From Candidatus Thermosaccharophagus tengchongensis (lineage in GTDB: Bacteria; Armatimonadota; Fervidibacteria; Fervidibacterales; Thermosaccharophagaceae), in assembly GCA_032161105.1 (NCBI GenBank), contig JAVHTD010000004.1: a DNA stretch of 64,000 nt, one strand, 5' to 3'. The notes beneath the pieces were generated by a model. The model was not told the origin of the DNA. It ran no database searches and worked only from the letters and a program-made list of their open reading frames with translations. The position numbers and the translations under genes are program-made. Below, piece after piece: positions 1 to 12,289 of this stretch; within the stretch, counting starts at the first letter, position 1, and each line of letters begins with the position of its first letter.

Positions 1-919
1 AAACATCCACAGCGTTGTGCAACAGCAAGCTTTCGCGGAGAGCCTCGGTGGGGTTCTCAACAAATTGGCAATATAGTTCGGGGAGTAAGGACGACGGTGG
101 TGCACTCACTGGATGGCGCATGGCAACGCACAGCGTTGAGAGGCGGCAATCACCGAGCTGTTCACCCCACAGCTTGCGGCTGATGTGTATAAGGTCAATG
201 TGCGCTACTGGCTCAACCCACGCAAGCTTATAGCGCATGCAGCGAGAACGCAACATCGGCACATCAAATGCCTTCCCATTGAACGAGATAAGCGCACATC
301 CATTCACGATGCTGAGGAACGCCTCAATGATGAGCGGTTCCTCGGAGTAGTCATGCGCAAGCCATTGATGCAAAACGAGCTTATGCAACCCCCTGAGCCA
401 TTCAAGCGCACCGATGAGGAAAATGGGCATGCTGCCGAAGCCGAGCGTCTCGCAATCAACAAACAAAATTCGGTCACTGGCGCAAGCGGTGAGCAACTCT
501 GAAAGCATGCCATGCCTATTGATGGAGCTCTGTTCCACCGCTGCGCTGATGATGGCATCGGCGCCTGCCAGCGCCTTTGAAGCACGCTCAAGGAGCGGCT
601 GGCGAGCGCATCCGTTGAGTGCATCCTTAGCGATGAACGAAATTTCACCTGTGCGCTGCTGAAGCGCATTCGCTGTAACACCAAATGAAAACTCATCACG
701 CCGATAATGCGGCACACCAGTTGGGCAACACCGCTCGGCTGTGCAATGAGCAGGTTTACCCCCACATTTGTCAGAGGGCATAGGCGAGCGTAAGGCATCA
801 TTACTTGCGGTCTTGAGAGCTTGCCGATTCGCCTCGCGAATGAGCCTGCCGACCCTCGGCAAAAGGCTATTGCCACTGCGAATTGACCACCCATTGCCCC
901 CTCCGACACGCTTGCACAT
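1..919 (-). CDS. RNase H-like (YprB / RNase_H_2 family) exonuclease domain protein, 3'-truncated by window edge
   Basis: Not in ORF track. My translation is open from ATG at 919 (SD GGGGAGGTGAG upstream) to the edge, with motifs ILFVDCETLG, LISFNGKAFDVPML, HIDLIHISRKLW, LLLHNAVDV. Confidence 0.85.
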   Translation of the reverse strand, partial: MCKRVGGGNGWSIRSGNSLLPRVGRLIREANRQALKTASNDALRSPMPSDKCGGKPAHCTAERCCPTGVPHYRRDEFSFGVTANALQQRTGEISFIAKDALNGCARQPLLERASKALAGADAIISAAVEQSSINRHGMLSELLTACASDRILFVDCETLGFGSMPIFLIGALEWLRGLHKLVLHQWLAHDYSEEPLIIEAFLSIVNGCALISFNGKAFDVPMLRSRCMRYKLAWVEPVAHIDLIHISRKLWGEQLGDCRLSTLCVAMRHPVSAPPSSLLPELYCQFVENPTEALRESLLLHNAVDV

Positions 920-931
920 GAGTTAGCGCCC

Positions 932-1732
932 TCACCTCCCCCCAACATCCCTCACGATTGCCTTCATGCCGATCTCGTCAAGTTCCTGAGCAAGCCTTTC
1001 AGCATCGCTGCGCTCATCAAACGCCCCAACGATGATGCGATAAGTCTCACCGGTTGGCGTCTTGGTCACTTCAACGAATGGCTGATAGCCTTTGCTTATG
1101 AGCTCTTGCACGAGCTTGTCCGCGTTCTCCTTCAACCTGAACAACCCAACTTGAACCTGATATCGCCTTTTGACGCTGCCCGGTGGCGCACTGATGGTTC
1201 CAGACTCAGATGACGATTGCTCGCCAACCGTTTCACTTCCACCCGAACGAGGTTCGTAAGTTACAGCGGGCTTTGTTCTCTCAGGCTGTGATACCTTTGT
1301 CGTGGGAGTGACCTTAATGTCCCCTTGCGGTGGTGATGGTGTCGGTTGGGGTTGTCCGGATTCTGATGGCTGTGTCTCCACCTTTTCCTCACGGGTAACC
1401 TCAGGCGCCGTCTCAGATGGCTCTGAGACATTCTGAGATCGCTCCTCACTTCCAGCCGGTGAATAGATCGGCTCAATTGTGACCGTCGTCTCATTCGGTA
1501 TGAGCGCCATGTCGCTCCTGACAAACGCTTGAGATGCATCCTCACGGCTGAGCCCAGTTGTGTCGGTTGTCATTGTGCCCGTTGCTGGGCTGATACGGGA
1601 ACGCAAGTATGGACCGATGACACCTTTCCCAAGCTGATAGAAACCGATTGCCCCAACCACAATAATGATGCCCGCCAAGAACTCAACAAGCGACCTCAAG
1701 CGCTGTCTCTTCGCTTTGCGCATCGTTATCAC
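932..1732 (-). CDS. SPOR domain-containing membrane protein
   Basis: N-terminal TM helix, Pro/Ser/Thr/Glu linker, C-terminal SPOR (YQVQVGLF...ENA...YRIIVGAFDERSDAE). Confidence 0.9.
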   Translation of the reverse strand: MITMRKAKRQRLRSLVEFLAGIIIVVGAIGFYQLGKGVIGPYLRSRISPATGTMTTDTTGLSREDASQAFVRSDMALIPNETTVTIEPIYSPAGSEERSQNVSEPSETAPEVTREEKVETQPSESGQPQPTPSPPQGDIKVTPTTKVSQPERTKPAVTYEPRSGGSETVGEQSSSESGTISAPPGSVKRRYQVQVGLFRLKENADKLVQELISKGYQPFVEVTKTPTGETYRIIVGAFDERSDAERLAQELDEIGMKAIVRDVGGR

Positions 1733-3489
1733 CTGCCCTGCTGCGATTCAATTTGCAAACTCTCCCTGTGGCTGGAAATCGCAGTGACATTCCCGCTCAA
1801 GCGCGCCTGCAAGCTCAACTGGTTTGCGAGCGTCTTGACGAGACGCTCATACTGCACATTCTGCATGCTGAGCGAGACCCTGATGTCAGCCAACTCTGCC
1901 GGGAGAATGATCACCGACCCAACCTGATTAGCCAAGTAACGGCATAAGTCAACCAAGCGCCAGTCCCTTGCATTCACACTGACAATTCGCCTTCCCACAT
2001 CTTCAGTGAACTGACTCAGAGACTTGGCAACCGGATACAGGACAAGCCAACTGCCAATGGCTTTATTTGCGCTCTCAATGACGAGGCGCACTTCGTGTGT
2101 GCCCGGAACAAGCGGGTTAATTGGCACCGGCACTGGCTGCAACTTATTCTCAACGAGGTTGCCCTCCCAAAGCGGGATTGATAGTTGTGGCGACTTTGGA
2201 GGAGACGGCGATTGCGAATCAGCTGCTTGCCTTCTGAACAAGAGAGCTTCCACAGCTGAAGCGTCAATAAACTTTGGAGCGTATGCCAATACGCGCACAT
2301 TCTCCAAGTTCTGCCTCGGGCGAAGCGACATAAGCCATAATCCACGCTGGTTAAGCACTGCCGGTGAGGCTTGCGAAACTTCAACCTCAACTGGCGGTTG
2401 GGTGGTGCTGCTCTCTTGTATCGCGTGCACGGCTGATGGCTGCCTGCGGTGAATGTCCTTCAGCTTCTCCTCGGCAGCGCGCTCAACATCCGGTGGCACT
2501 ACTCCAGCAGCGGCAAACCCCTCGTTTAAAGATTTGGCTAATGGTTTGGGAACATCCAAACCGTGCTGACTCTCCTGCCCCTTCTGACCCTCCTGTCCCG
2601 CCAATTTGGTCGGCTCACCCTTAGCCTTCGGTGACTCACCGTGCCCCTCACCAACCACCTGTAGCGGTGCTGCTGGCAGAGTTAAACGGCTACTCACCCT
2701 TGAGCTTCTCGCCTCGGCTCTCTCACCAACTTCCTCTGCACTTTTCGGTGCCGCCTCCACAGCAATTGGTTCTGGCAATTCAACCTCACTCGTCACACCG
2801 CCTCTCAAAGCCAACGGGCGCTCCAAGCTCGGCGCTTCCCTCTCCTTTTCCACACTTTCGTGAAAAGACCTCGGAGTCAGAGGCACCGGCTCAATATTGA
2901 GAGCAGCACTCGGTTGACGGCGTTGAATTTGAGCACGCGCAATCTTAACTGCCCTTTGCTCCCGTGTAGTGCTCAGCGCTACCTGTGGCTTAGCCATACC
3001 GCCGCGTTCCTTCACCACTGCCGGCACACTGCTGCTCGGTGGTGCAGGAGTTAGCCTTTTTCGCTCACCGACCGACCTTGCTGTTGGAGCTGCCATTTCC
3101 ACTGAGGCGATGCGCCTCTCAATGCCAGTGCGCGAGTAGATTGCAAATACCGCCATAGCAAGAATTGAAGCGGCTCCAAACACAAACGCCAATTGCGCGG
3201 GCAACCTCCTCCACGCAATGCTGCCTCCCGATGGCAACCCTCCAACTCGCTTTAGGACAGCTTCGCATGTGCGCTCATAAGCCCCTTGCGGTGGCGCAAT
3301 GCTATCTGAGGAGATGGAGCGCAGCGCGGCTACAACAGCCGTATAACTTTCAAGCGCCCTGCGGCACTCATCGCACATGTTCAAATGCTCTTGGAATGCC
3401 GATAGGAGTTTTGGCTCTCGCTGCAAGCTCCCATCAGTGTATTCAACGAATAAGTTTCGGATGCGCCTGCACTTTATCCTGCCAAGCAT
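1729..3489 (-). CDS. Zinc-finger (ZAS, zf-HC2) transmembrane anti-sigma factor with long extracytoplasmic region
   Basis: HLNMCDEC = HxxxCxxC, one TM helix, directly downstream of the ECF sigma gene. Confidence 0.8.
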   Translation of the reverse strand: MLGRIKCRRIRNLFVEYTDGSLQREPKLLSAFQEHLNMCDECRRALESYTAVVAALRSISSDSIAPPQGAYERTCEAVLKRVGGLPSGGSIAWRRLPAQLAFVFGAASILAMAVFAIYSRTGIERRIASVEMAAPTARSVGERKRLTPAPPSSSVPAVVKERGGMAKPQVALSTTREQRAVKIARAQIQRRQPSAALNIEPVPLTPRSFHESVEKEREAPSLERPLALRGGVTSEVELPEPIAVEAAPKSAEEVGERAEARSSRVSSRLTLPAAPLQVVGEGHGESPKAKGEPTKLAGQEGQKGQESQHGLDVPKPLAKSLNEGFAAAGVVPPDVERAAEEKLKDIHRRQPSAVHAIQESSTTQPPVEVEVSQASPAVLNQRGLWLMSLRPRQNLENVRVLAYAPKFIDASAVEALLFRRQAADSQSPSPPKSPQLSIPLWEGNLVENKLQPVPVPINPLVPGTHEVRLVIESANKAIGSWLVLYPVAKSLSQFTEDVGRRIVSVNARDWRLVDLCRYLANQVGSVIILPAELADIRVSLSMQNVQYERLVKTLANQLSLQARLSGNVTAISSHRESLQIESQQGR

Positions 3490-3531
3490 TTTCGGTCACC
3501 CTTTGCTTGCGTTAGGAAGCATTGCCATGTT

Positions 3532-3561
3532 TTAGACTCCATGCCAATTGCGGCTTGTTCC
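3532..3561 (-). promoter_or_regulatory. Putative ECF sigma promoter (GGAAC-N19-GTCTAA) between sigma and anti-sigma genes
   Basis: Minus strand reads GGAACaagccgcaattggcatggaGTCTAA, ending ~42 nt before the anti-sigma ATG. Confidence 0.6.
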
Positions 3562-3581
3562 GCAGCGCCATCAGGCGGCTT

Positions 3582-4286
3582 TCACATCTTCTGGCGCATC
3601 ATTTTGGACAACTCATCCTTCAGCGCGAGCCTCGCCCTATTTAGCCTTGATTTAACCGTGCCAATTGGGACTCCAAGCACATTGGCAGCCTCTTCGTAGC
3701 TCAAGCCCTCCAAATCGCACAGCACGATCACGAGGCGCATATTCGTCGGAAGACGGTGAATGGCTGTCCACACGAGCTCCTTCAAGTCACCCCGTTCGGC
3801 AACCTCTTCGGGCGATGGAGAAGGATCTTGCACTGCAAACGCTTCGCTTCGTTCCTCCTCAGTTAAGGATGACATCGGTGTCTCCCGTCTCCTGCGAAGG
3901 TGCTCAAGACACACATTCACTGAAATGCGATAAATCCAAGTGCCCAAAGTTGAGCCCTTGCGGAAGCGCTTCAACCCCTCAAAAACTTTGATGAAGACTT
4001 CCTGCGTCACATCTGCGGCATCATCGTGGTTGCCAAGCATACGGTATACCATCCCGTAAACTCGCCCGTGAAAAAGCTCAATCAACTTGCGCCACGCCCA
4101 TTCATCGCCCTGCAGACATGCCTCAATGAGCCTTCCCTCATGCGACCCACTGTCATAGGCGCAATAAGCTTCCCCATCTGATGCGTGATACATGCCCTTA
4201 CCAACGGCACTATCACTGTTGTGCTTCGTGCCACCTTGCATTCCGTGTGCAGGTATTGAGCTATCGCGACCCGCATGCTTTGCCAT
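3582..4286 (-). CDS. ECF-type RNA polymerase sigma-70 factor
   Basis: Region 2 (DAADVTQEVF, TWIYRISVN) and region 4 (LSYEEAANVLGVPIGTVKSRLNRAR); start placed at ATG 4286 behind GGAGG (ORF track 4340). Confidence 0.95.
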   Translation of the reverse strand: MAKHAGRDSSIPAHGMQGGTKHNSDSAVGKGMYHASDGEAYCAYDSGSHEGRLIEACLQGDEWAWRKLIELFHGRVYGMVYRMLGNHDDAADVTQEVFIKVFEGLKRFRKGSTLGTWIYRISVNVCLEHLRRRRETPMSSLTEEERSEAFAVQDPSPSPEEVAERGDLKELVWTAIHRLPTNMRLVIVLCDLEGLSYEEAANVLGVPIGTVKSRLNRARLALKDELSKMMRQKM

Positions 4287-4336
4287 AAAAATGGGACACC
4301 CTCCAAAGTGCCGCCTTTTCGGGCGCGCTTTTGGCG

Positions 4337-5992
4337 TCAAAGCATCTCCTCGCGCACGAGCCTCCCGTTGACATATACCCTTATGACCACTCTTGCACCC
4401 CTTCCCATGACTGTGCGAGTCACAACATCACCGGGGACATGTTCACCTTTGTAAGCCAATCGCTTGCCATCCTCATCAATGACCTCAATCTCAACCGTTT
4501 GGAGCAACTCACCTTTGCCCACGCTGACAGTAACTCTCGCTGCTTTATATCCAGGCTTGGGCGTTTGCTCCTCCACCTGCGGTGGACGCCCAGAGCTAAC
4601 CACAAGCTGCACAATACCTCCCTTTGGAAGACGATACCCATGTGGCGGTTGCTGACCGACTATACGCCCCTCGGCGACAATCTCACTGTATGTCTTTGCA
4701 ATCACCCTCGGAACCAATCCCTCAGAGCTAATCCTCTGCTCAGCTTCCTCAGCTGGTAGGTCAAGGACATTCGGCACAGCAACTTCCTCAGGACCGCTGC
4801 TCACAACGACATCAATGACCCTCCCACGCCGAACAAGCTTCCCCGGCTCAACACCAATCATTGAGATGACATGGTTTGCTGGGATATCGGAGCTATACTC
4901 AGTCTGCGCCACACGAAGATGCAATCCAACCTCTGCCATCTTCTGCTGAGCCTCAAGTAATGGCATCCCCGTCACATCGGGCACACTCACCTCTGGTGAT
5001 GGTGTCCCCACAAGGAGCCACCATATGATGAGCGCAAGCAGGAACATGCCAATGATTGAACCCGCTATAGTTATCAAAGCCCTACTGAGCAAACTGACAC
5101 CCATTGGTTGTCGCTCCTCAGCCTGCATCTCCGCCCGAACGGATATCGGCTGGACGGATACGCTCACTTGGTCAAGCGCTGAGATAGCCTCCCTTAAAGC
5201 GCTCCCCATCTCCTGAGCCGAAGAGAAGCGCTTCTCGCGATCCTTCTCAAGCGCACGCAGTATTGCCCTCTCCACAACCCTTGGGACAGCCGGATTTAGG
5301 TCACTTGGCAGCGGCGGCGGTGTGCTCAGGTGCATCGTGGCTATGTCAGTCATTGAACCACCGCGAAACGGTAACACGCCGGTGACCGATTGAAAGAGCA
5401 CGATCCCAAGCGAGTATATGTCGCCGGCTGGCTCCACAATGTCTTCCTCAAACCTTTCGGGAGGTAGGTAGTAGATTGCCCTTCTGACCCACTCAGCTTC
5501 AAGGAGCTTCTCGGAAGCTATCACTTCGTGGAGGGCATAATCAATCAACTTAACTTCGCCACGGTGCGTTACGAGTATGTGTTCCGGACGCAGGTCACCA
5601 TGTGTGATGCCGAGTTCATGCAACTGCTCAAGTGCATCGCATATCTGTATTCCCACCCTGAGTGCTTGCGTTACCGGTATGATGGCACGCCTTTGGAGGA
5701 TGGCGGCGAGGCTCTCTCCGGGGACATACTCGCACGAGAGGTAAAGGGTGCTATCAGCCTCACCAACGCTGAGGTAGCGAACCAAGTTTGGGTGCAGTAT
5801 GTTCAAGCTTGGCTCAACGCATTCCCTGAAGCGTTCCCTGAACTGTTGACTCCTCGCCCACGCCTCATGAACCACCTTCAGGGCAACAATACTCCCGGTC
5901 AACCTGTCTCTCACTTTATAAACGGAGAAGAGCACACCGCTGCCCATCTCTTCTATGAACTGGTAACGGTAACTGAGCACTTGTTCTACCAT
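4337..5992 (-). CDS. PknB/PrkC-like Ser/Thr kinase-fold protein with TM helix and 2 PASTA domains (catalytic motifs degenerate)
   Basis: VALK, HPNLV, HGDLRPEH, DYA, YLPPE, DIYSLG; PASTA repeats VPDVTG... and VPNVLD... Confidence 0.9.
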   Translation of the reverse strand: MVEQVLSYRYQFIEEMGSGVLFSVYKVRDRLTGSIVALKVVHEAWARSQQFRERFRECVEPSLNILHPNLVRYLSVGEADSTLYLSCEYVPGESLAAILQRRAIIPVTQALRVGIQICDALEQLHELGITHGDLRPEHILVTHRGEVKLIDYALHEVIASEKLLEAEWVRRAIYYLPPERFEEDIVEPAGDIYSLGIVLFQSVTGVLPFRGGSMTDIATMHLSTPPPLPSDLNPAVPRVVERAILRALEKDREKRFSSAQEMGSALREAISALDQVSVSVQPISVRAEMQAEERQPMGVSLLSRALITIAGSIIGMFLLALIIWWLLVGTPSPEVSVPDVTGMPLLEAQQKMAEVGLHLRVAQTEYSSDIPANHVISMIGVEPGKLVRRGRVIDVVVSSGPEEVAVPNVLDLPAEEAEQRISSEGLVPRVIAKTYSEIVAEGRIVGQQPPHGYRLPKGGIVQLVVSSGRPPQVEEQTPKPGYKAARVTVSVGKGELLQTVEIEVIDEDGKRLAYKGEHVPGDVVTRTVMGRGARVVIRVYVNGRLVREEML

Positions 5993-6007
5993 GCAATGTC
6001 TGCACCT

Positions 6008-6556
6008 CTACGCGAGGAGCTGGCTGAGCTGCTTGCGTTGGCTTGCTCCCACACTGAATTTTGAGTGCAACCTTTCAACCGTTAGGATCACAAGCGGCGC
6101 AATTGAAACTGCATAGGCAGTTTCAACGAGAGCCACTGCGACGGCTGATATATCCAGTTTGCCAAACGAGATTAGAAGCTGCGGGGCTGTCATCAGCATT
6201 GTCACCTCGCACACAGCTGAGCCGACGAGAGCGCATAGGAATGGCATAAGCCAATGTTCATGGAGCACATACTCCCTTGCCCAACCGGCTGAGAAGCCAG
6301 CTGCGAGCCTGCTCATCCCATATTGCCCATGATAAGCGCCGACAAGACTCCCTTGAAACAGCCCAAGCATTAAGCCCACAATAGCCCCATTCAAGCTGCC
6401 CTTGCGCAAGCCCACACAAATGCATGTGATTATGAAAAGGTCTGGCACAACGCAATGCCAGTCATATCTGACTTTCGGTAACACGCCGACCGCCAAGGAG
6501 AAAAAGGCAGTCACAGCGAACGCCCAAAAGAGCATCACTTTAACTCCCCTTATCAT
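6008..6556 (-). CDS. mreD: Rod shape-determining protein MreD
   Basis: Hydrophobic, PDL motif, follows mreC with 4-bp overlap. Confidence 0.8.
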   Translation of the reverse strand: MIRGVKVMLFWAFAVTAFFSLAVGVLPKVRYDWHCVVPDLFIITCICVGLRKGSLNGAIVGLMLGLFQGSLVGAYHGQYGMSRLAAGFSAGWAREYVLHEHWLMPFLCALVGSAVCEVTMLMTAPQLLISFGKLDISAVAVALVETAYAVSIAPLVILTVERLHSKFSVGASQRKQLSQLLA

Positions 6557-7398
6557 TTGACATCCTTCCCCTGAGGAATGATGAACACCTCCTGCAAGCT
6601 CCCAAACTTAACGAATGGCTCAACAATGCCCTCAACAGTCTGGCTCGCCTCAATCTGATGGACCCTAACCACCTTCCCCACAGGGATTCCCACCGGGTAA
6701 ACTTCCCCGAGCCCGGATGTGACCAACTCATCGCCAGCTCTCAAATCGCCGTTTGAATCAAGCAGCCTCACCGAGCACTTTCCGTTGCCACAACCACGCA
6801 CGAACCCTATTGCACCATTTCTTTTGACGCGCACACCGACACCACATCGCTTATCAACAACGAAGAGAACAACACAACTGCTTTGCGAGATGCGCATCAC
6901 TTGCCCAACCAATCCGCTACACGCCACAACGACATCGCCGACGGAGACACCGTCTTTAGCGCCCCGATTCAACACGGCAGACGCGACCCAATTGGACGGG
7001 CTTACGGCGATCACCTCAGCAGCTATGTGAGCTTGCGGCAGCTTCGGCTCAAGCTGCAACAGGCGGCGCAGGCGGTAGTTCTCCGCCATGTAACGGCGCA
7101 GTTGCCTATTTTCGCTCTCAAGCTCAAAAATCCTCCTTCTGAGCTGCCTGTTCTCCCTCCTCAACTGATCAGCCTCATGAGATAGCCTGAATACCCCTCT
7201 CACCCTCTCAGCTGCATCAGAGAGGCGTCCGATAATCACCCCGATGGGCGCTGCGATTAGGACGCCAATCTGCTCAACCTTTGTGACATAAGCTGAGGCA
7301 CTCGGGCGCAGCCATAGCATCAAAGAGAGAGCCACACCAACTACTCCGCCGAGAAGGAAGAAACGGGATAGGCGGCGTTTTGGTGCTGCCGTCTCCAT
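6553..7398 (-). CDS. mreC: Rod shape-determining protein MreC
   Basis: TM, coiled coil (ENRQLRR), LNRGAKDGV, LVTSGLGEVYPVGIPVG. Confidence 0.95.
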   Translation of the reverse strand: METAAPKRRLSRFFLLGGVVGVALSLMLWLRPSASAYVTKVEQIGVLIAAPIGVIIGRLSDAAERVRGVFRLSHEADQLRRENRQLRRRIFELESENRQLRRYMAENYRLRRLLQLEPKLPQAHIAAEVIAVSPSNWVASAVLNRGAKDGVSVGDVVVACSGLVGQVMRISQSSCVVLFVVDKRCGVGVRVKRNGAIGFVRGCGNGKCSVRLLDSNGDLRAGDELVTSGLGEVYPVGIPVGKVVRVHQIEASQTVEGIVEPFVKFGSLQEVFIIPQGKDVK

Positions 7399-7477
7399 CT
7401 GTGGTCACCCTCAAGCGATGAGAAAGGGAAGCCAAAATGCAAATGGGCAACGCTTGTGGATTGACATGAGCGAAGGT

Positions 7478-8515
7478 CTATGGTCTGCTCCCATCCAAGA
7501 TGCGCTTTATGTAGGTATCCCACTCTTCAACAGCCCTCCCAGCACCCATGACGACACAAGTCAACGGGTCGTCAGCAATCCTTGTAGGGATGCCGGTATC
7601 GGCTGATATGAGCTTATCAATGCCTCGCAGCAATGCACCGCCACCGCAAAGCACTATGCCCCTTTCCATGACATCAGCTGCGAGTTCTGGTGGTGTGTGT
7701 TCAAGCGTAGCCTTCACAGCTTCAACAATTTGATAGACTGGCTCTGAGATGGCTTCCCTAATCTCCTCGCTCCTCAAAACGATGCTCTTTGGAAGCCCAG
7801 AGACAAGATCCCTCCCGCGAACTTGCATGCTCAGCTCCTTCTCAAGCGGGAAGGCTGAACCAATCCGTATCTTGATTTCTTCGGCTGTGTGCTCTCCGAT
7901 GAGCAAGTTGTATGTATGGCGAACATACGACATTATCGCCTCATCAATTTCGTCGCCAGCTATCCTTATCGGGTTCGCCGTCACTATTCCGCCGAGCGAT
8001 ATCACGGCTGCTTCAGTTGTGCCGCCGCCGATGTCAACAATCATGCTCCCAATCGGCTCGCTAACTGGCAACCCGGCACCTATAGCAGCAGCCATCGGCT
8101 CTTCAATTATGCAGGCTTCCGCAGCGCCAGCTTCAATTGCAGCCTCCTTGACAGCGCGCCTTTCAACCTCTGTGGCAACCGAAGGTATGCCAATGACGAC
8201 CCTCGGTGAAATGAAGCTGCTGCGCCTATGAACCTTTCTCATGAAGTAGCTGAGCATCTTCAAAGCCGTATCGTAATCGGCTATCGTGCCATCCTTAACG
8301 GGGCGCTTGGCGACTATGTGCCCCGGAGTCCTACCAACCATACGCTTTGCTTCCTCACCAACTGCCCTTATCTCACCGGTCTCCAAGTCCTCGGCAATCA
8401 CCGATGGCTCCCTGATTAAGATTCCACGCCCACGAACATACACGAGCGTTGTTGCAGTCCCAAGGTCAATCCCCATATCGCATGAAAAGCGCCTTAGCAA
8501 TGCCCTCCAAAACAT
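7478..8515 (-). CDS. mreB: Rod shape-determining protein MreB
   Basis: DMGIDLGTA, EEPMAAAIGAG, VDIGGGTTE, GGGALL. Confidence 0.98.
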   Translation of the reverse strand: MFWRALLRRFSCDMGIDLGTATTLVYVRGRGILIREPSVIAEDLETGEIRAVGEEAKRMVGRTPGHIVAKRPVKDGTIADYDTALKMLSYFMRKVHRRSSFISPRVVIGIPSVATEVERRAVKEAAIEAGAAEACIIEEPMAAAIGAGLPVSEPIGSMIVDIGGGTTEAAVISLGGIVTANPIRIAGDEIDEAIMSYVRHTYNLLIGEHTAEEIKIRIGSAFPLEKELSMQVRGRDLVSGLPKSIVLRSEEIREAISEPVYQIVEAVKATLEHTPPELAADVMERGIVLCGGGALLRGIDKLISADTGIPTRIADDPLTCVVMGAGRAVEEWDTYIKRILDGSRP

Positions 8516-8664
8516 GTTCCTCTCCTCCCATCATCGTCCTCCGTCAATGCGCTATCAACCATCAGATACAAAGTTTAGCAGCGCACTGCAAAGGTCTGTA
8601 ATGTCACATGCAGCTGCAGAATGAGCTGCATCAACTTCCATCTTCACCACGCCTGCTTCAACTT

Positions 8665-9360
8665 TCAAATCTTGCCTCGCTCGCGAAGGCTCACAAACAC
8701 CCCATCACCAATGATGATATGGTCAAGCACATTTATTCCGAGCAGCTTGCCCGCCTCTATGAGCTGCTTGCTCAATTCAATGTCGCAATCGCTCGGCTGC
8801 GGATCGCCACTTGGATGGTTGTGCACGAATATAACGCTCACGGCGCTTTGCCTTATCGCCTCCTTAAAACACTCCCTCGGATGGGCAAGCGATGCATCCG
8901 CCGTCCCAACCGAGACTATTGGGGCACCGAGCACCCTGTTTTTGGCATCCAAAAGGACGATGCGCAGCACTTCCCTGTCAAGATAACGCATCTCTGACAT
9001 GAGCAGCTGAGCCACATCTTGAGGCGACTTTATGACTGGACGCTCACTTGGGGCGCCGGTGAAAGCCCTCCTTCCGAGCTCAAGCGCTGCCTTGATTTGG
9101 ACAGCCTTCGTCTTGCCCACACCCTTAACTTTGCACAATTCCTCAATCCCGGCGGAGTGTAATTGGCGCAAGCCGCCAAACTGCACAAGGAGGCGCTGCG
9201 CAAGCTCAAGGGCTGTCTCACGGCTTGTTCCTGTGCGAAGGATTATGGCGAGCAATTCAGCATCTGAGAGAGCAGGCGCACCATCGCGCATTAGACGCTC
9301 CCTCGGACGGAGTTCCTTTGGCATATCCTTGAGCGTATAACGCGCCTTGCCACCGCCCAT
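8665..9360 (-). CDS. radC: RadC family JAB-domain protein
   Basis: RPRERL, LSDAELLAIILRTG, HNHPSGDP, LDHIIIG. Confidence 0.97.
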   Translation of the reverse strand: MGGGKARYTLKDMPKELRPRERLMRDGAPALSDAELLAIILRTGTSRETALELAQRLLVQFGGLRQLHSAGIEELCKVKGVGKTKAVQIKAALELGRRAFTGAPSERPVIKSPQDVAQLLMSEMRYLDREVLRIVLLDAKNRVLGAPIVSVGTADASLAHPRECFKEAIRQSAVSVIFVHNHPSGDPQPSDCDIELSKQLIEAGKLLGINVLDHIIIGDGVFVSLRERGKI

Positions 9361-9572
9361 AACCGTTCACCGCCCCAAATGATGCAAGCCAACATGGGTA
9401 AAACATAAGCGGCTGAGCAAACACAAGCCCTGAAACATCGCCATTGGGCTGCAGATGTAATTTTACTGCAGCTTGATGTGCACTGCAGGTGATGGGGACG
9501 ATGGTGAAGACGGTGTAGCATTCAACCGCTGGCTGTGCGCCATAATGTGTAGCGATTGCTAACGGAGTTGAG

Positions 9573-10601
9573 GTGAGGCAGTTGAGCGATCGGCATCTTG
9601 CCAGCACACTTGATGATGAATTGAGAGCCGTTGAGAGATTGCGCGAGGCAAGGGAAGCAATACTTGGCGAGATACGGAAGGTCATCGTTGGGCAGGACGA
9701 AGTCATTGAACTCGTCCTCATTGCCCTATTCTCACAGGGTCATTGCCTCCTCATCGGCGTCCCCGGGCTGGCAAAGACTTTGCTCGTAAACAGCGTAGCG
9801 AAGGTGCTTGACCTATCATTCAAGCGGATACAATTCACACCGGACTTGATGCCGGCGGACATAATCGGAACCGACATACTTCAGGAAGACGCGCAGACCG
9901 GCAGGCGCATATTTGAGTTCGTGAAAGGTCCGATATTTGCTAACATCATCCTCGCCGATGAAATAAACCGTGCGCCACCGAAGACGCAATCGGCTCTGCT
10001 TGAGGCAATGCAAGAATACCGAGTGACAGCTGGCGGAAGAACTTACGAGCTCCCACTGCCGTTCTTCGTCCTCGCCACACAAAATCCGATAGAGCTTGAG
10101 GGGACTTATCCGCTGCCCGAAGCACAACTTGATAGGTTCATGTTTGCGATCACGCTTGACTACCCATCTCACGATGAGGAAAAGGAGATTGTGCGCCTGA
10201 CGACATCGCTGAGGAACCAAACGATTAACCCTGTGATGGGGGCAAAGGAAATACTTGAAGTGCAAGCACTCGTGCGCGGCGTGCCAGCTACCGAAAGCGT
10301 GATTGATTATGCAACACGGCTGGTCAGAAGCACACGCCCTCAGGATGAGCTCGCACCAAAGTTCGTCAAGCAATGGATCAGCTGGGGCGCTGGACCAAGA
10401 GCCTCGCAGTTCCTTATACTTGGAGCAAAGGCGAGGGCTATAACGATGGGAAGGTATGCGGCATCGGTTGAAGATGTGAAGGCAATAGCACATCCAGTCT
10501 TGAGGCACAGGATCGTTCTGAGCTACTCCGCAGAGGCTGACGGAGTGACTGCTGACCAAATCATCTCAAAGCTCATTCAACATGTCCCGGAGCCAAAGTG
10601 A
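9573..10601 (+). CDS. MoxR family AAA+ ATPase
   Basis: GVPGLAKT, RIQFTPDLMPAD, DEINRAPPKTQSALLEAM, TYPLPEAQLDRF. Confidence 0.95.
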   Translation: MRQLSDRHLASTLDDELRAVERLREAREAILGEIRKVIVGQDEVIELVLIALFSQGHCLLIGVPGLAKTLLVNSVAKVLDLSFKRIQFTPDLMPADIIGTDILQEDAQTGRRIFEFVKGPIFANIILADEINRAPPKTQSALLEAMQEYRVTAGGRTYELPLPFFVLATQNPIELEGTYPLPEAQLDRFMFAITLDYPSHDEEKEIVRLTTSLRNQTINPVMGAKEILEVQALVRGVPATESVIDYATRLVRSTRPQDELAPKFVKQWISWGAGPRASQFLILGAKARAITMGRYAASVEDVKAIAHPVLRHRIVLSYSAEADGVTADQIISKLIQHVPEPK

Positions 10602-10681
10602 CGATCTTAAAACAGGATGCCGATTGCCACCCGACCAAAAATCCCGATGGCGTTGCCGCTGTGTGCCCATTGAGGGACGGC

Positions 10682-12289
10682 TCATTGCTCATCCTCGCCG
10701 TTAAAGATGAGCTTGCGCACATCAATCAACTGCCCACTTGAAGGCTGAGGAGGTTGCTCAGGTTGCCGACCCACATGCGATTTGGAGGGCGCTTTTGAAT
10801 TCGTCTTGCTGCCCCGCGGCATTGACTCGCCTCTCATTGATGGTTCGGATCTTAAGTTCATAGCGCCGACCTTAATGATCGTCGGCTGCGGTGGATATGT
10901 ATCCTCATGGACTAACTCCTTGCGAACGAGCTTGCCATCCAAATATGTCAATCGCCATGTGGCTGTGACATATCCGCAGCGACCAAACTGCTCAACTCGC
11001 CTCTCACCAACGGGTAACGACGGATCCGCCTTTGATACAGTTGGTGGCGGAATAACCCTCATCAACTCACTGCGCACTTCATGCCGCACACCGATGCGCT
11101 TTCCGAGAATTAACACCGTCAGCTTCCCACCAATGGCACTTGCCTTTATGCAAACTGGGTAAGGATACGGGTTGCGCAGCTTGAGGTCAAGGCGCCCATA
11201 GTCAACTGTGGCATCCATCCCAGCTGGCAAGTAGCCAATCGGGCGGCTGTGGTGATGCCTCTCCACAATCTCCAAACCAGCGCGCAATGCTGCATTGAAC
11301 AGCGTCCCAGACACCTGACACACGCCACCACCAATGTCATGCTCAAACCTCCCCTTAACAAGCACTGGTGCAACTTTGTAGCCCCTATCAAAGCACCTCG
11401 GACCCACAGCCTCGTTAAATGAAAACACCTCACCTTGGCGAATGAGCTTCCCGTCAATTGCCGATGCCGCAAGACGAATGTTGTGCGAGCGCGTTGCCTT
11501 GCGAGTGCTGTAGTAGGTGGTGGACTTTCCAATGATGGCGTCTATGTGAGCCACATCCTCAGTTGAAACTCTCGGTGGCACTGGCGTGACGAAGATGGGC
11601 AGCTCACGCTCTATGAAAGCGCCCGTCTCAACAAGCCACCTCCATAAGCGCAGCGTCATCTCCTCCTCGCCCTCACCAAAACGAACCCCATAAGAGCTGC
11701 CAATGATTTTCGGTCGCTCACCAATGAGCATCACCTTGGCGTCCTTTGGCGGGCGCTCCATCATTTGTCCAAGTCGCCTTATCAAACGCATTGCAACATC
11801 GCCATCCAACACATACTTTGGTGGGACTTCAAAGCCGTGCACTCTCGCCCGCAGGCGCTCACGCAGCCGACATGTAAAGCCGCCGCGCCGACCATACTCA
11901 TATGCGGTTTTGACGACCCAATCAACATCAAATCGGATGCCGACTGAGCGCGCTTCATATTCCCATGAGGCTTGGCAATGATTGCCTTCGGTCATCCTCA
12001 CCACTATGCGAACCCTGCTTTGCCCTATGCGCCTCGCAAAGGATTGATGTAGCTTCCTTCTCGCCCGCTCCGGCGTCATGCCGCTTAGATCGCAACCGGT
12101 GAAATCACAAAGCGGGGAGAAGCCAATCCCGCGAATGATTCTCCCATCATCCCGGTAGGCGAAGGAGAGCGCCAGAATAACAAGAGCTGATGCGGCGACC
12201 GATGATGCGGCAATCACGAGCAAGCGCATGTTAAAGCGCCCCAACCTTTGACTCACATCGCCGGTCATCCCGCCATCCGAATGCACCAT
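10682..12289 (-). CDS. VanW family protein with G5 domain
   Basis: FSFNEAVGPR, GGGVCQVSGTLFNA, ERHHHS, DATV; C-terminal G5-like segment. Confidence 0.92.
   Translation of the reverse strand: MVHSDGGMTGDVSQRLGRFNMRLLVIAASSVAASALVILALSFAYRDDGRIIRGIGFSPLCDFTGCDLSGMTPERARRKLHQSFARRIGQSRVRIVVRMTEGNHCQASWEYEARSVGIRFDVDWVVKTAYEYGRRGGFTCRLRERLRARVHGFEVPPKYVLDGDVAMRLIRRLGQMMERPPKDAKVMLIGERPKIIGSSYGVRFGEGEEEMTLRLWRWLVETGAFIERELPIFVTPVPPRVSTEDVAHIDAIIGKSTTYYSTRKATRSHNIRLAASAIDGKLIRQGEVFSFNEAVGPRCFDRGYKVAPVLVKGRFEHDIGGGVCQVSGTLFNAALRAGLEIVERHHHSRPIGYLPAGMDATVDYGRLDLKLRNPYPYPVCIKASAIGGKLTVLILGKRIGVRHEVRSELMRVIPPPTVSKADPSLPVGERRVEQFGRCGYVTATWRLTYLDGKLVRKELVHEDTYPPQPTIIKVGAMNLRSEPSMRGESMPRGSKTNSKAPSKSHVGRQPEQPPQPSSGQLIDVRKLIFNGEDEQ

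Follow-up and report, generated by a model that had tools for sequence, protein, structure and literature searches.

A kinase, sigma factor and anti-sigma factor gene triad conserved in an order of Fervidibacteria resembles the mycobacterial PknB-RseA-SigE pathway

Introduction

In mycobacteria the kinase PknB phosphorylates the anti-sigma factor RseA at T39, which leads to its degradation by ClpC1P2 and to the release of SigE. The classification of extracytoplasmic function (ECF) sigma factors records this phosphorylation for the SigE group, ECF14, and includes there an Armatimonadetes subgroup with the gene of a zinc-binding anti-sigma factor (ZAS) at position +1. In the characterised systems covered by the available sections of the ECF literature, control by a PASTA kinase spans separate loci and was found by genetics. 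Here we describe a locus of Candidatus Thermosaccharophagus tengchongensis, of the class Fervidibacteria (Armatimonadota), in which a Hanks-type Ser/Thr kinase with two PASTA domains, a SigE-like ECF sigma factor and a ZAS anti-sigma factor are encoded by neighbouring genes directly behind mreBCD. The locus occupies the first 9.4 kb of a 64,000-nucleotide stretch of contig JAVHTD010000004.1 (assembly GCA_032161105.1), referred to below as the window. We propose that the triad is a hard-wired relative of the PknB-RseA-SigE pathway, a three-gene envelope module that was secondarily joined to mreBCD, and regard the chances of this proposal being right as about even. A full-text search of part of the literature returned no published description of an operonic PASTA kinase-ECF-ZAS triad. 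An initial annotation of this DNA named no characterised system with this combination; a precedent exists in mycobacteria, where the action of a PASTA kinase on the ZAS anti-sigma factor of SigE is established.

As in the mycobacterial pathway, a Hanks kinase with PASTA domains is paired with a SigE-type sigma factor whose ZAS anti-sigma gene follows directly; the mycobacterial kinase gene lies outside the sigma locus, whereas here the three genes form one unit. The O-methyltransferase gene at -1 and the Tat and HtrA neighbours of ECF14 are not seen at this locus, as is also the case for some ECF14 subgroups in the classification. Here the kinase gene stands at -1, and genes for a SPOR-domain protein and an exonuclease come after the anti-sigma gene. 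ECF14 anti-sigma factors are described in the same source as soluble or single-pass, whereas the one encoded here is a 586-residue membrane protein with a periplasmic beta-sandwich and STN-like module. A single-pass anti-sigma factor with a periplasmic STN-fold end recalls the FecR and PupR regulators; in contrast to these, its N-terminus is a ZAS domain and not of FecR type, its sigma factor is SigE-like and not FecI-like, and no TonB-dependent transducer is found among the genes of the cluster.

Two other arrangements are close to this one. In ECF43 and related groups, such as EcfK-PknS of Xanthomonas citri (PMC13147305), a Hanks kinase gene is conserved beside the ECF sigma gene. They typically have no co-encoded anti-sigma factor, the one named exception being ECF267 with a FecR-like factor carrying TPR repeats, and their kinases are not described in that source as PASTA kinases (PMC7826278). 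Here, in contrast, 13/13 loci of the order have a ZAS gene next after the sigma gene. The ECF39 subgroups likewise link cell-wall sensing by PASTA domains to an ECF sigma factor. There the anti-sigma factor itself carries the PASTA domains and a kinase plays no part, whereas here the PASTA domains belong to the kinase and the anti-sigma ectodomain is a different one. The triad may represent a third solution, beside kinase-linked ECF factors that have no anti-sigma factor and anti-sigma factors fused to PASTA domains.

Results

A gene triad conserved across the order

The three genes are found on the minus strand of the window.

4337-5992, minus strand: Hanks-type Ser/Thr kinase with two PASTA domains (Pkinase 1.8e-38; PASTA 1.1e-25, in two stretches)
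3582-4286, minus strand: SigE-like ECF sigma factor, 234 residues from the likely ATG at 4286 (Sigma70_r2 1.6e-18, r4_2 2.2e-16)
1729-3489, minus strand: ZAS membrane anti-sigma factor, 586 residues (zf-HC2 19.8 bits, and conserved Cys and His residues)

The sigma gene likely starts at ATG 4286, judged from the MAK opening that it has in common with genome G003, which leaves a gap of 50 bp behind the kinase gene. The longest sigma frame, 3582-4340, opens at TTG 4340 and overlaps the kinase stop by 4 bp. Sigma and anti-sigma genes are separated by 92 bp.

Using the kinase as query, we fetched 20 loci around the best ortholog, three from the genus, nine from the sister family and eight from other families. 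Hanks kinases are present in 41/41 related genomes, and full-length orthologs with two PASTA domains occur throughout the phylum. Within the genus, where kinase identity is 70-85%, all three congeners keep cysS, a vanW-like gene, moxR, radC, mreBCD, the kinase, sigma and anti-sigma genes and the SPOR gene; one of the three also has the exonuclease gene after SPOR. This synteny says little about function, because the unrelated flanks (cysS, vanW-like, moxR) are equally collinear. The triad is adjacent in all four genus genomes and, at kinase identities of 35-44%, in 9/9 loci of the sister family, where the kinase/sigma gap is a few bp and the sigma and anti-sigma genes overlap by 4 bp. It is also adjacent in 8/8 metagenome contigs that have downstream sequence and a kinase of at least 41% identity (among the first 45 of 78 loci); these contigs were sought with the kinase alignment and possibly stem from the same species as the genome loci. 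The sister-family triad sits behind a conserved TTTATAATTGCC box, which is TATAAT-like, and no match to RadC, MreB, MreC, MreD or SPOR was found within 16-20 kb of it (0/9 loci). From this pattern of conservation we take the triad to be the conserved unit, and the joins to mreBCD and to SPOR to be events of one genus.

In the eight loci from other families, with kinase identities of 27-33%, no sigma gene adjoins the kinase gene (0/8); in a single locus a gene of the sigma-70 family occurs two genes upstream. Here aroB lies at most two genes upstream of the kinase in 6/8 and rpe directly downstream in 4/8. The usual context of the kinase in the phylum is aroK/aroB, kinase, rpe, (a small gene), ribD and ribE (L024, L026, L027, L030, L031), and a kinase-rpe neighbourhood is also known from Bacillus; in the genome of the window the aro, rpe and rib genes of this context are scattered over contigs C7 and C20. 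An MreB-like BLAST match of 33 residues, 7 kb from the kinase in L026, was rejected as spurious, the mreB-mreC genes of that genome being on another contig.

A calcineurin-like phosphoesterase gene is divergent from the triad across the TTTATAATTGCC box in four of five sister-family loci by Pfam; the fifth has homologous upstream DNA, and its frame lay outside the scanned set.

L019:10894-11580, L020:8329-9015, L022:12350-13015 and L023:11027-11737: sister-family calcineurin-like metallophosphoesterase

An ortholog with 54% identity lies on another contig of the window's genome (G000:C9:21414-22073). This metallophosphoesterase is a candidate for the partner phosphatase of the kinase.

The sigma factor appears closest to actinobacterial SigE

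The sigma factor consists of sigma2 and sigma4 (Sigma70_r2, r4_2/r4) with no region 3, and scores 107.3 bits against a cut-off of 42.9 for TIGR02937. Among solved structures its best match is SigE (2.6e-33), followed by 8z6g_B and 6in7_B (1.3e-31 to 1.7e-31) and RpoE (3.2e-29), and its best NCBIfam model is that of SigE (NF007229), at 147 bits and below the cut-off of 265. In a quick maximum-likelihood tree of 93 sigma factors the four genus and nine sister-family sequences share a clade (SH-like approximate likelihood ratio test, SH-aLRT, 93) with 19 SigE-like rows, 17 of them labelled Actinomycetota. One long-branch Clostridia row is found in the same clade, and gammaproteobacterial and acidobacterial relatives fall outside it. 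Grouped by sequence and tree, rather than by the models of ECF14 itself, the sigma factor appears closest to actinobacterial SigE. A Hanks kinase of any kind lies within 6 kb of the sigma gene in two of its 80 nearest relatives outside the order (at most 43% identity), and neither of these kinase matches spans the PASTA part.

The linker between sigma2 and sigma4 is variable except for Ser139 (numbered in the 234-residue form), which is invariant in 13/13 sigma factors of the order and could serve as a phospho-acceptor. The genus proteins have a Ser/Thr-rich N-terminal extension. The acidic stretch of region 2 is altered in phosphorylation-dependent sigma factors; here it is intact (DDAADVTQE).

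An anti-sigma factor with a ZAS domain and an STN-like ectodomain

The anti-sigma factor has an N-terminal ZAS domain, a membrane segment at residues 96-120, a long low-complexity linker, and a beta-sandwich followed by an STN/FecR_C-like domain at about residues 375-575. The zf-HC2 match to the window protein, at 19.8 bits, is below the Pfam cut-off of 22.2. The ZAS assignment of the initial annotation nevertheless holds, as the four putative ligands Cys7, His35, Cys39 and Cys42 (an HxxxCxxC motif and an upstream Cys) are invariant in 13/13 relatives and the zf-HC2 match is above the cut-off in all five sister-family copies scanned.

An AlphaFold2 model of residues 375-586 (mean predicted local distance difference test score, pLDDT, 81.6) shows a beta-sandwich and a beta-alpha-beta domain. 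With VIA-align the latter, which is the last domain of the protein, matches the C-terminal STN subdomain of PupR (6ovm_R; Z 6.8, root-mean-square deviation 1.5 A over 72 residues) and the Bacteroidales FecR-like anti-sigma factor BDI_1681 (4m0h; Z 6.3). Further fold matches are to the signalling domains of PupA and FecA and to secretin N0, with PilQ N0 (4ar0) found by Foldseek; all Z values of these matches are below 8, a middling range. The window protein has no Pfam match to FecR or FecR_C, and phmmer with the whole protein gave 0 matches among solved structures.

A profile of the C-terminal module retrieved 68 proteins among 1.84 billion representatives. We scanned 44 of these 68, and all 18 full-length proteins carry an N-terminal zf-HC2 domain (17 above the cut-off), while 23 of the 26 partial ones bear STN, FecR_C, N0 or secretin-family domains. 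A word-indexed homolog search with the C-terminus found three clusters only, and a protein atlas returned matches with scores of 0.76, which are leads only and include STN and FecR_C clusters. The anti-sigma factor belongs to a small family, of about 20 clusters at 50% identity among these representatives, that combines a ZAS domain with a FecR_C/STN-like ectodomain, two parts otherwise known from different classes of anti-sigma factor.

The kinase

The kinase gene is the sole PASTA gene of the genome, both PASTA matches falling inside it. The protein has one hydrophobic stretch at about residues 299-335, which forms the membrane segment, two PASTA domains at residues 335-468 and a conserved, beta-rich C-terminal tail. 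Its best-scoring model is NF033483, with 323.3 bits, below the cut-off of 450. The initial annotation had called the gene kinase-like. The protein is not degenerate in the usual sense, since the catalytic Lys39, Asp133 (HGD) and Asp151 (DYA) are kept, and Lys, Asp and Asp at these places are invariant in 12/12 sequences of the order. It is of the non-RD type (HGD), as are 20 of the 21 phylum sequences compared. The catalytic-loop Asn and the DFG motif contain residues that bind metal. Neither is canonical here: the Asn is replaced by His (residue 138; HGDLRPEH) in all four genus genomes and in 0/17 other sequences of the phylum, and DFG reads DYA in the window protein and DYA or DYG in the genus. 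The kinases with His (window, L013-L015) are from the same four genomes in which the kinase gene follows mreD. The protein may be an active kinase, with a substrate proposed from the mycobacterial pathway. A complex prediction of the kinase ectodomain (residues 330-551) with the C-terminal module of the anti-sigma factor scored 0.00, which is no answer and is uninformative about binding.

Joined to the elongation genes in one genus

In the window the triad is part of a string of nine genes, the remaining six of which are as follows.

8665-9360, minus strand: radC, heading the string; 231 residues (Pfam RadC 5.5e-44, and UPF0758_N; NF000642 268.8 bits, above cut-off)
7478-8515, minus strand: mreB; 345 residues (MreB_Mbl 3.3e-144; NF010539 502.9 bits, above cut-off)
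6553-7398, minus strand: mreC; 281 residues (Pfam MreC 9.7e-39; TIGR00219 129.1 bits, above cut-off)
6008-6556, minus strand: mreD-like polytopic membrane protein; 182 residues (TIGR03426 33.5 bits against a cut-off of 34.85)
932-1732, minus strand: bitopic SPOR-domain protein; 266 residues (SPOR 3.8e-15)
1..919, minus strand: RNase_H_2/YprB-like exonuclease of the DEDD type; 322 residues in full (RNase_H_2 2.4e-18 for the part in the window, 3.6e-20 for the full frame, L120:8390-9358)

All nine genes, from radC to the exonuclease gene, are co-directional, and the order radC-mreBCD-kinase-ECF-anti-sigma-SPOR-YprB-like on one strand is as first annotated. The exonuclease gene closes the string and ends about 50 bp outside the start of the window. 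A gap of 149 bp separates radC from mreB and one of 79 bp mreB from mreC, and mreC overlaps mreD by 4 bp. The reported spacings of 15 bp between mreD and the kinase gene and of 12 bp between SPOR and exonuclease genes, and the 4-bp overlap of anti-sigma and SPOR genes, were all confirmed. The sigma and anti-sigma genes, 92 bp apart, are not tightly joined. Upstream the string borders on a divergent MoxR gene, downstream on a convergent SIS/PGI gene, and its GC content is even, at 0.52-0.57.

MreB and MreC score above their curated cut-offs, and MreD, 1.35 bits under its own, is polytopic and in the canonical place with the 4-bp overlap; a mreD-like ortholog in genome G001 has the same position and is 46% identical. 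The locus shares the radC-mreB-mreC order of other radC-mreBCD operons and differs from them in what comes after mreD, which is usually mrdA/rodA or minCD. These are absent after mreD here, and the two SEDS genes of the genome lie on other contigs. The sister family keeps the order radC-mreB-mreC, followed by a convergent uppP (BacA) gene, and its MreD-like frame is detached, next to galT (L121:4064-4537).

L116:4971-6642, L117:4845-6462 and L118:4832-6515: sister-family mreC/uppP region

The SPOR protein is the only SPOR match of the genome (56.4 bits against a cut-off of 21), with a membrane segment at residues 11-40. Its likeness to the FtsN, DedD and RlpA models is weak and below threshold (FtsN TIGR02223, 31 bits against 107.65). 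In the sister family the single SPOR gene is located elsewhere than the triad in 5/5 genomes.

The initial annotation saw in this string a cell-wall surveillance system co-transcribed with the elongation machinery. Its kinase/ECF/anti-sigma signalling unit exists and is kept across the order. The physical connection to the elongation genes is real, contiguous and co-directional in the genus, but absent from the sister family, where the triad has its own TATAAT-like box and neither mre nor SPOR genes nearby. Synteny across relatives, by which that reading was to be judged, fails for mre outside the genus, and conservation lends no support to a functional coupling to the elongasome.

A promoter-like footprint ahead of the anti-sigma gene

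The gap between sigma and anti-sigma genes contains a conserved element.

3525-3561, minus strand: ECF-type promoter-like footprint, GGAAC-N19-GTCTAAA(A/G)CATGG

GGAAC and GTCTAAA(A/G)CATGG are invariant in the four genus genomes, in which the 19-nt spacer has diverged and the gap measures 89-106 bp; the footprint is about 35 nt ahead of the anti-sigma start and its ribosome-binding site. The pattern occurs once in the window, where 0.09 matches would be expected, and is the sole such site in window positions 1-12000, an interval in which no ECF-type site was found before radC, mreB or the kinase gene. It is absent from the nine sister-family loci, where the sigma and anti-sigma genes overlap. 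Its geometry resembles the GGAAYR-N17-18-GTT quoted for SigH in the supplement to the ECF classification. We read the footprint as a putative ECF-dependent promoter for the anti-sigma, SPOR and exonuclease genes, which the sigma factor of the window may itself use. The only other intergenic site of the genome, GGAAC-N18-GTCTA at G000:C34:9767-9794, precedes a frame of 496 residues that is weakly DUF4139-like and lies behind a thioredoxin-reductase-like gene.

In all four genus genomes the gap between mreD and the kinase gene is 15-24 bp, holds a shared ribosome-binding site and is too short to accommodate a promoter. Upstream of mreB, at 8558-8530, there is a sigma-70-like site, TTGATA-17-GATGAT. 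A scan of positions 1-10000 gave nine terminator-like and six promoter-like sites against 8.5 and 5.4 in shuffled sequence, that is, not above chance. A weak hairpin at 4312-4295 in the kinase/sigma gap was rejected as a terminator, as it overlaps the ribosome-binding region. Contigs from one metatranscriptome, with 95-99% identity to the window, reach into every gene, and two of them bridge the mreD/kinase (5903-6101) and anti-sigma/SPOR (1650-1911) junctions. A second RNA run (X4) gave 12 raw reads on the stretch, too few for mapping transcript ends, while runs X2 and X3 yielded 0 reads and are uninformative. In X4, in the pairs on the kinase, sigma and anti-sigma genes the first mate is always on the plus strand. 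The RNA contigs and the gaps agree with co-transcription of the string, which they suggest but do not prove.

Discussion

A model for the triad and the evidence against it

We hypothesise that the triad of sole PASTA kinase, SigE-like sigma factor and ZAS anti-sigma factor dates from the common ancestor of this order of Fervidibacteria, and that only later, in the window's genus, did it come to lie immediately after mreBCD and ahead of the single SPOR gene. The PASTA ectodomain would read peptidoglycan precursors or fragments, and the kinase would phosphorylate the anti-sigma factor on its cytoplasmic ZAS domain, as PknB does with RseA to free SigE. The periplasmic beta-sandwich and STN-like domain of the anti-sigma factor may provide a second input through protein contact. 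Once freed, the sigma factor would fire the GGAAC-N19-GTCTAAA promoter, giving both negative feedback and induction of SPOR. In the genus the kinase and sigma genes would have no promoter of their own and would be read from the mre promoters, and their dose would track the expression of the elongation genes.

Several observations weigh against this model. The sigma factor falls below curated cut-offs, and the branching of family-1, family-2 and actinobacterial sigma sequences is a polytomy. No Ser or Thr is invariant across the order in the cytoplasmic domain of the anti-sigma factor, where the phosphate would be placed, and the exchange of Asn for His together with DYA or DYG could make the kinase a weak or unusual enzyme. 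The box ahead of the sister-family triad is of the housekeeping type, and no ECF-type site was found there. In the genus the footprint pattern is not enriched genome-wide, with five matches in the window's genome (G000) and 6-7 in each congener against 11-25 in the reversed control, and a search for its regulon in these genomes gave no definable one. The RNA data are sparse, and assembled contigs are no proof that the genes share one transcript.

Alternative explanations

It is possible, if rather unlikely, that the three proteins are co-expressed without any cross-talk. A general kinase of the PrkC/PknB type and an independent sigma/anti-sigma stress switch, driven by the STN-like sensor, would then share an operon since all are needed in growth. 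The anti-sigma factor comes with its own complete sensor module, and no conserved phospho-acceptor was seen in it; the sole PASTA kinase must have other substrates, and in most of the phylum it has no sigma gene beside it. However, the triad is adjacent, with very tight junctions, in 13/13 loci of the order despite surroundings that are scrambled between the two families. Such persistence usually points to a functional partnership, and the nearest characterised sigma system is kinase-controlled. We see only a slim chance for a third arrangement, in which the kinase phosphorylates the sigma factor directly, as in ECF43-type pairs such as EcfK-PknS, with the anti-sigma factor in a secondary role. 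The position of the kinase gene immediately ahead of the sigma gene, the invariant Ser139 (13/13) and the Ser/Thr-rich extension of the genus proteins would suit it. The intact DDAADVTQE stretch and the grouping of the sigma factor with SigE-like rather than kinase-linked groups speak against it, as does the ZAS gene, which is always present here, whereas kinase-linked ECF groups typically have no co-encoded anti-sigma factor (PMC7826278).

The integrated surveillance of the elongasome suggested by the initial annotation, with PASTA and SPOR as two sensors that feed one ECF regulon tied to MreBCD, now appears improbable. In its favour, the genes form an unbroken and probably co-transcribed string in the genus, and the genome encodes a single SPOR protein and a single PASTA protein. 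There is also a precedent in Streptomyces, where the Hanks kinase PkaI phosphorylates MreC and PBP2 (PMC4416010). Yet adjacency to mre and SPOR is missing in 9/9 sister-family loci, with SPOR elsewhere in 5/5 genomes, the collinearity of the genus reaches into unrelated flanking genes, and radC, mreB and the kinase gene all lack an ECF-type site ahead of them. The place of SPOR downstream of the footprint fits an output better than a second peptidoglycan sensor. We give little credence, too, to a two-sensor switch peculiar to the order, in which the PASTA kinase, sensing peptidoglycan precursors, and the STN-like anti-sigma factor, sensing a protein contact, would jointly gate the sigma factor and the circuit of the genus would couple elongation to division, mre expression setting the dose of kinase and sigma factor and SPOR, as a binder of septal peptidoglycan, being the direct output.

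A relationship to PknB-RseA-SigE, as we propose, would make the route from kinase to anti-sigma factor testable with three neighbouring genes, as kinase, sigma factor and ZAS anti-sigma factor are found in one conserved operon far from Actinobacteria. It would also suggest that this route predates the mycobacterial case or occurs more widely. The Fervidibacteria include a cultivated hyperthermophile, Fervidibacter sacchari, the proteins of which may be thermostable and well suited to biochemical and structural studies. In the genus, the fusion to mreBCD and SPOR may be seen as a natural experiment on how a signalling module can be put under new expression control.

Neighbouring genes

A frame of 154 residues on the minus strand (9257-9721), with no family match, overlaps the starts of radC and moxR and is probably not a gene. 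A MoxR ATPase gene is found near the triad in both families, on different sides (window 9573-12289; L017, L019, L020, L021; L129-L136), with DUF58/VWA beside MoxR in both sister-family loci that were scanned for these domains. The gene of a VanW/G5/PG_binding_4 protein is likewise close to the triad in the genus, as it is in a single locus of the sister family (L020).

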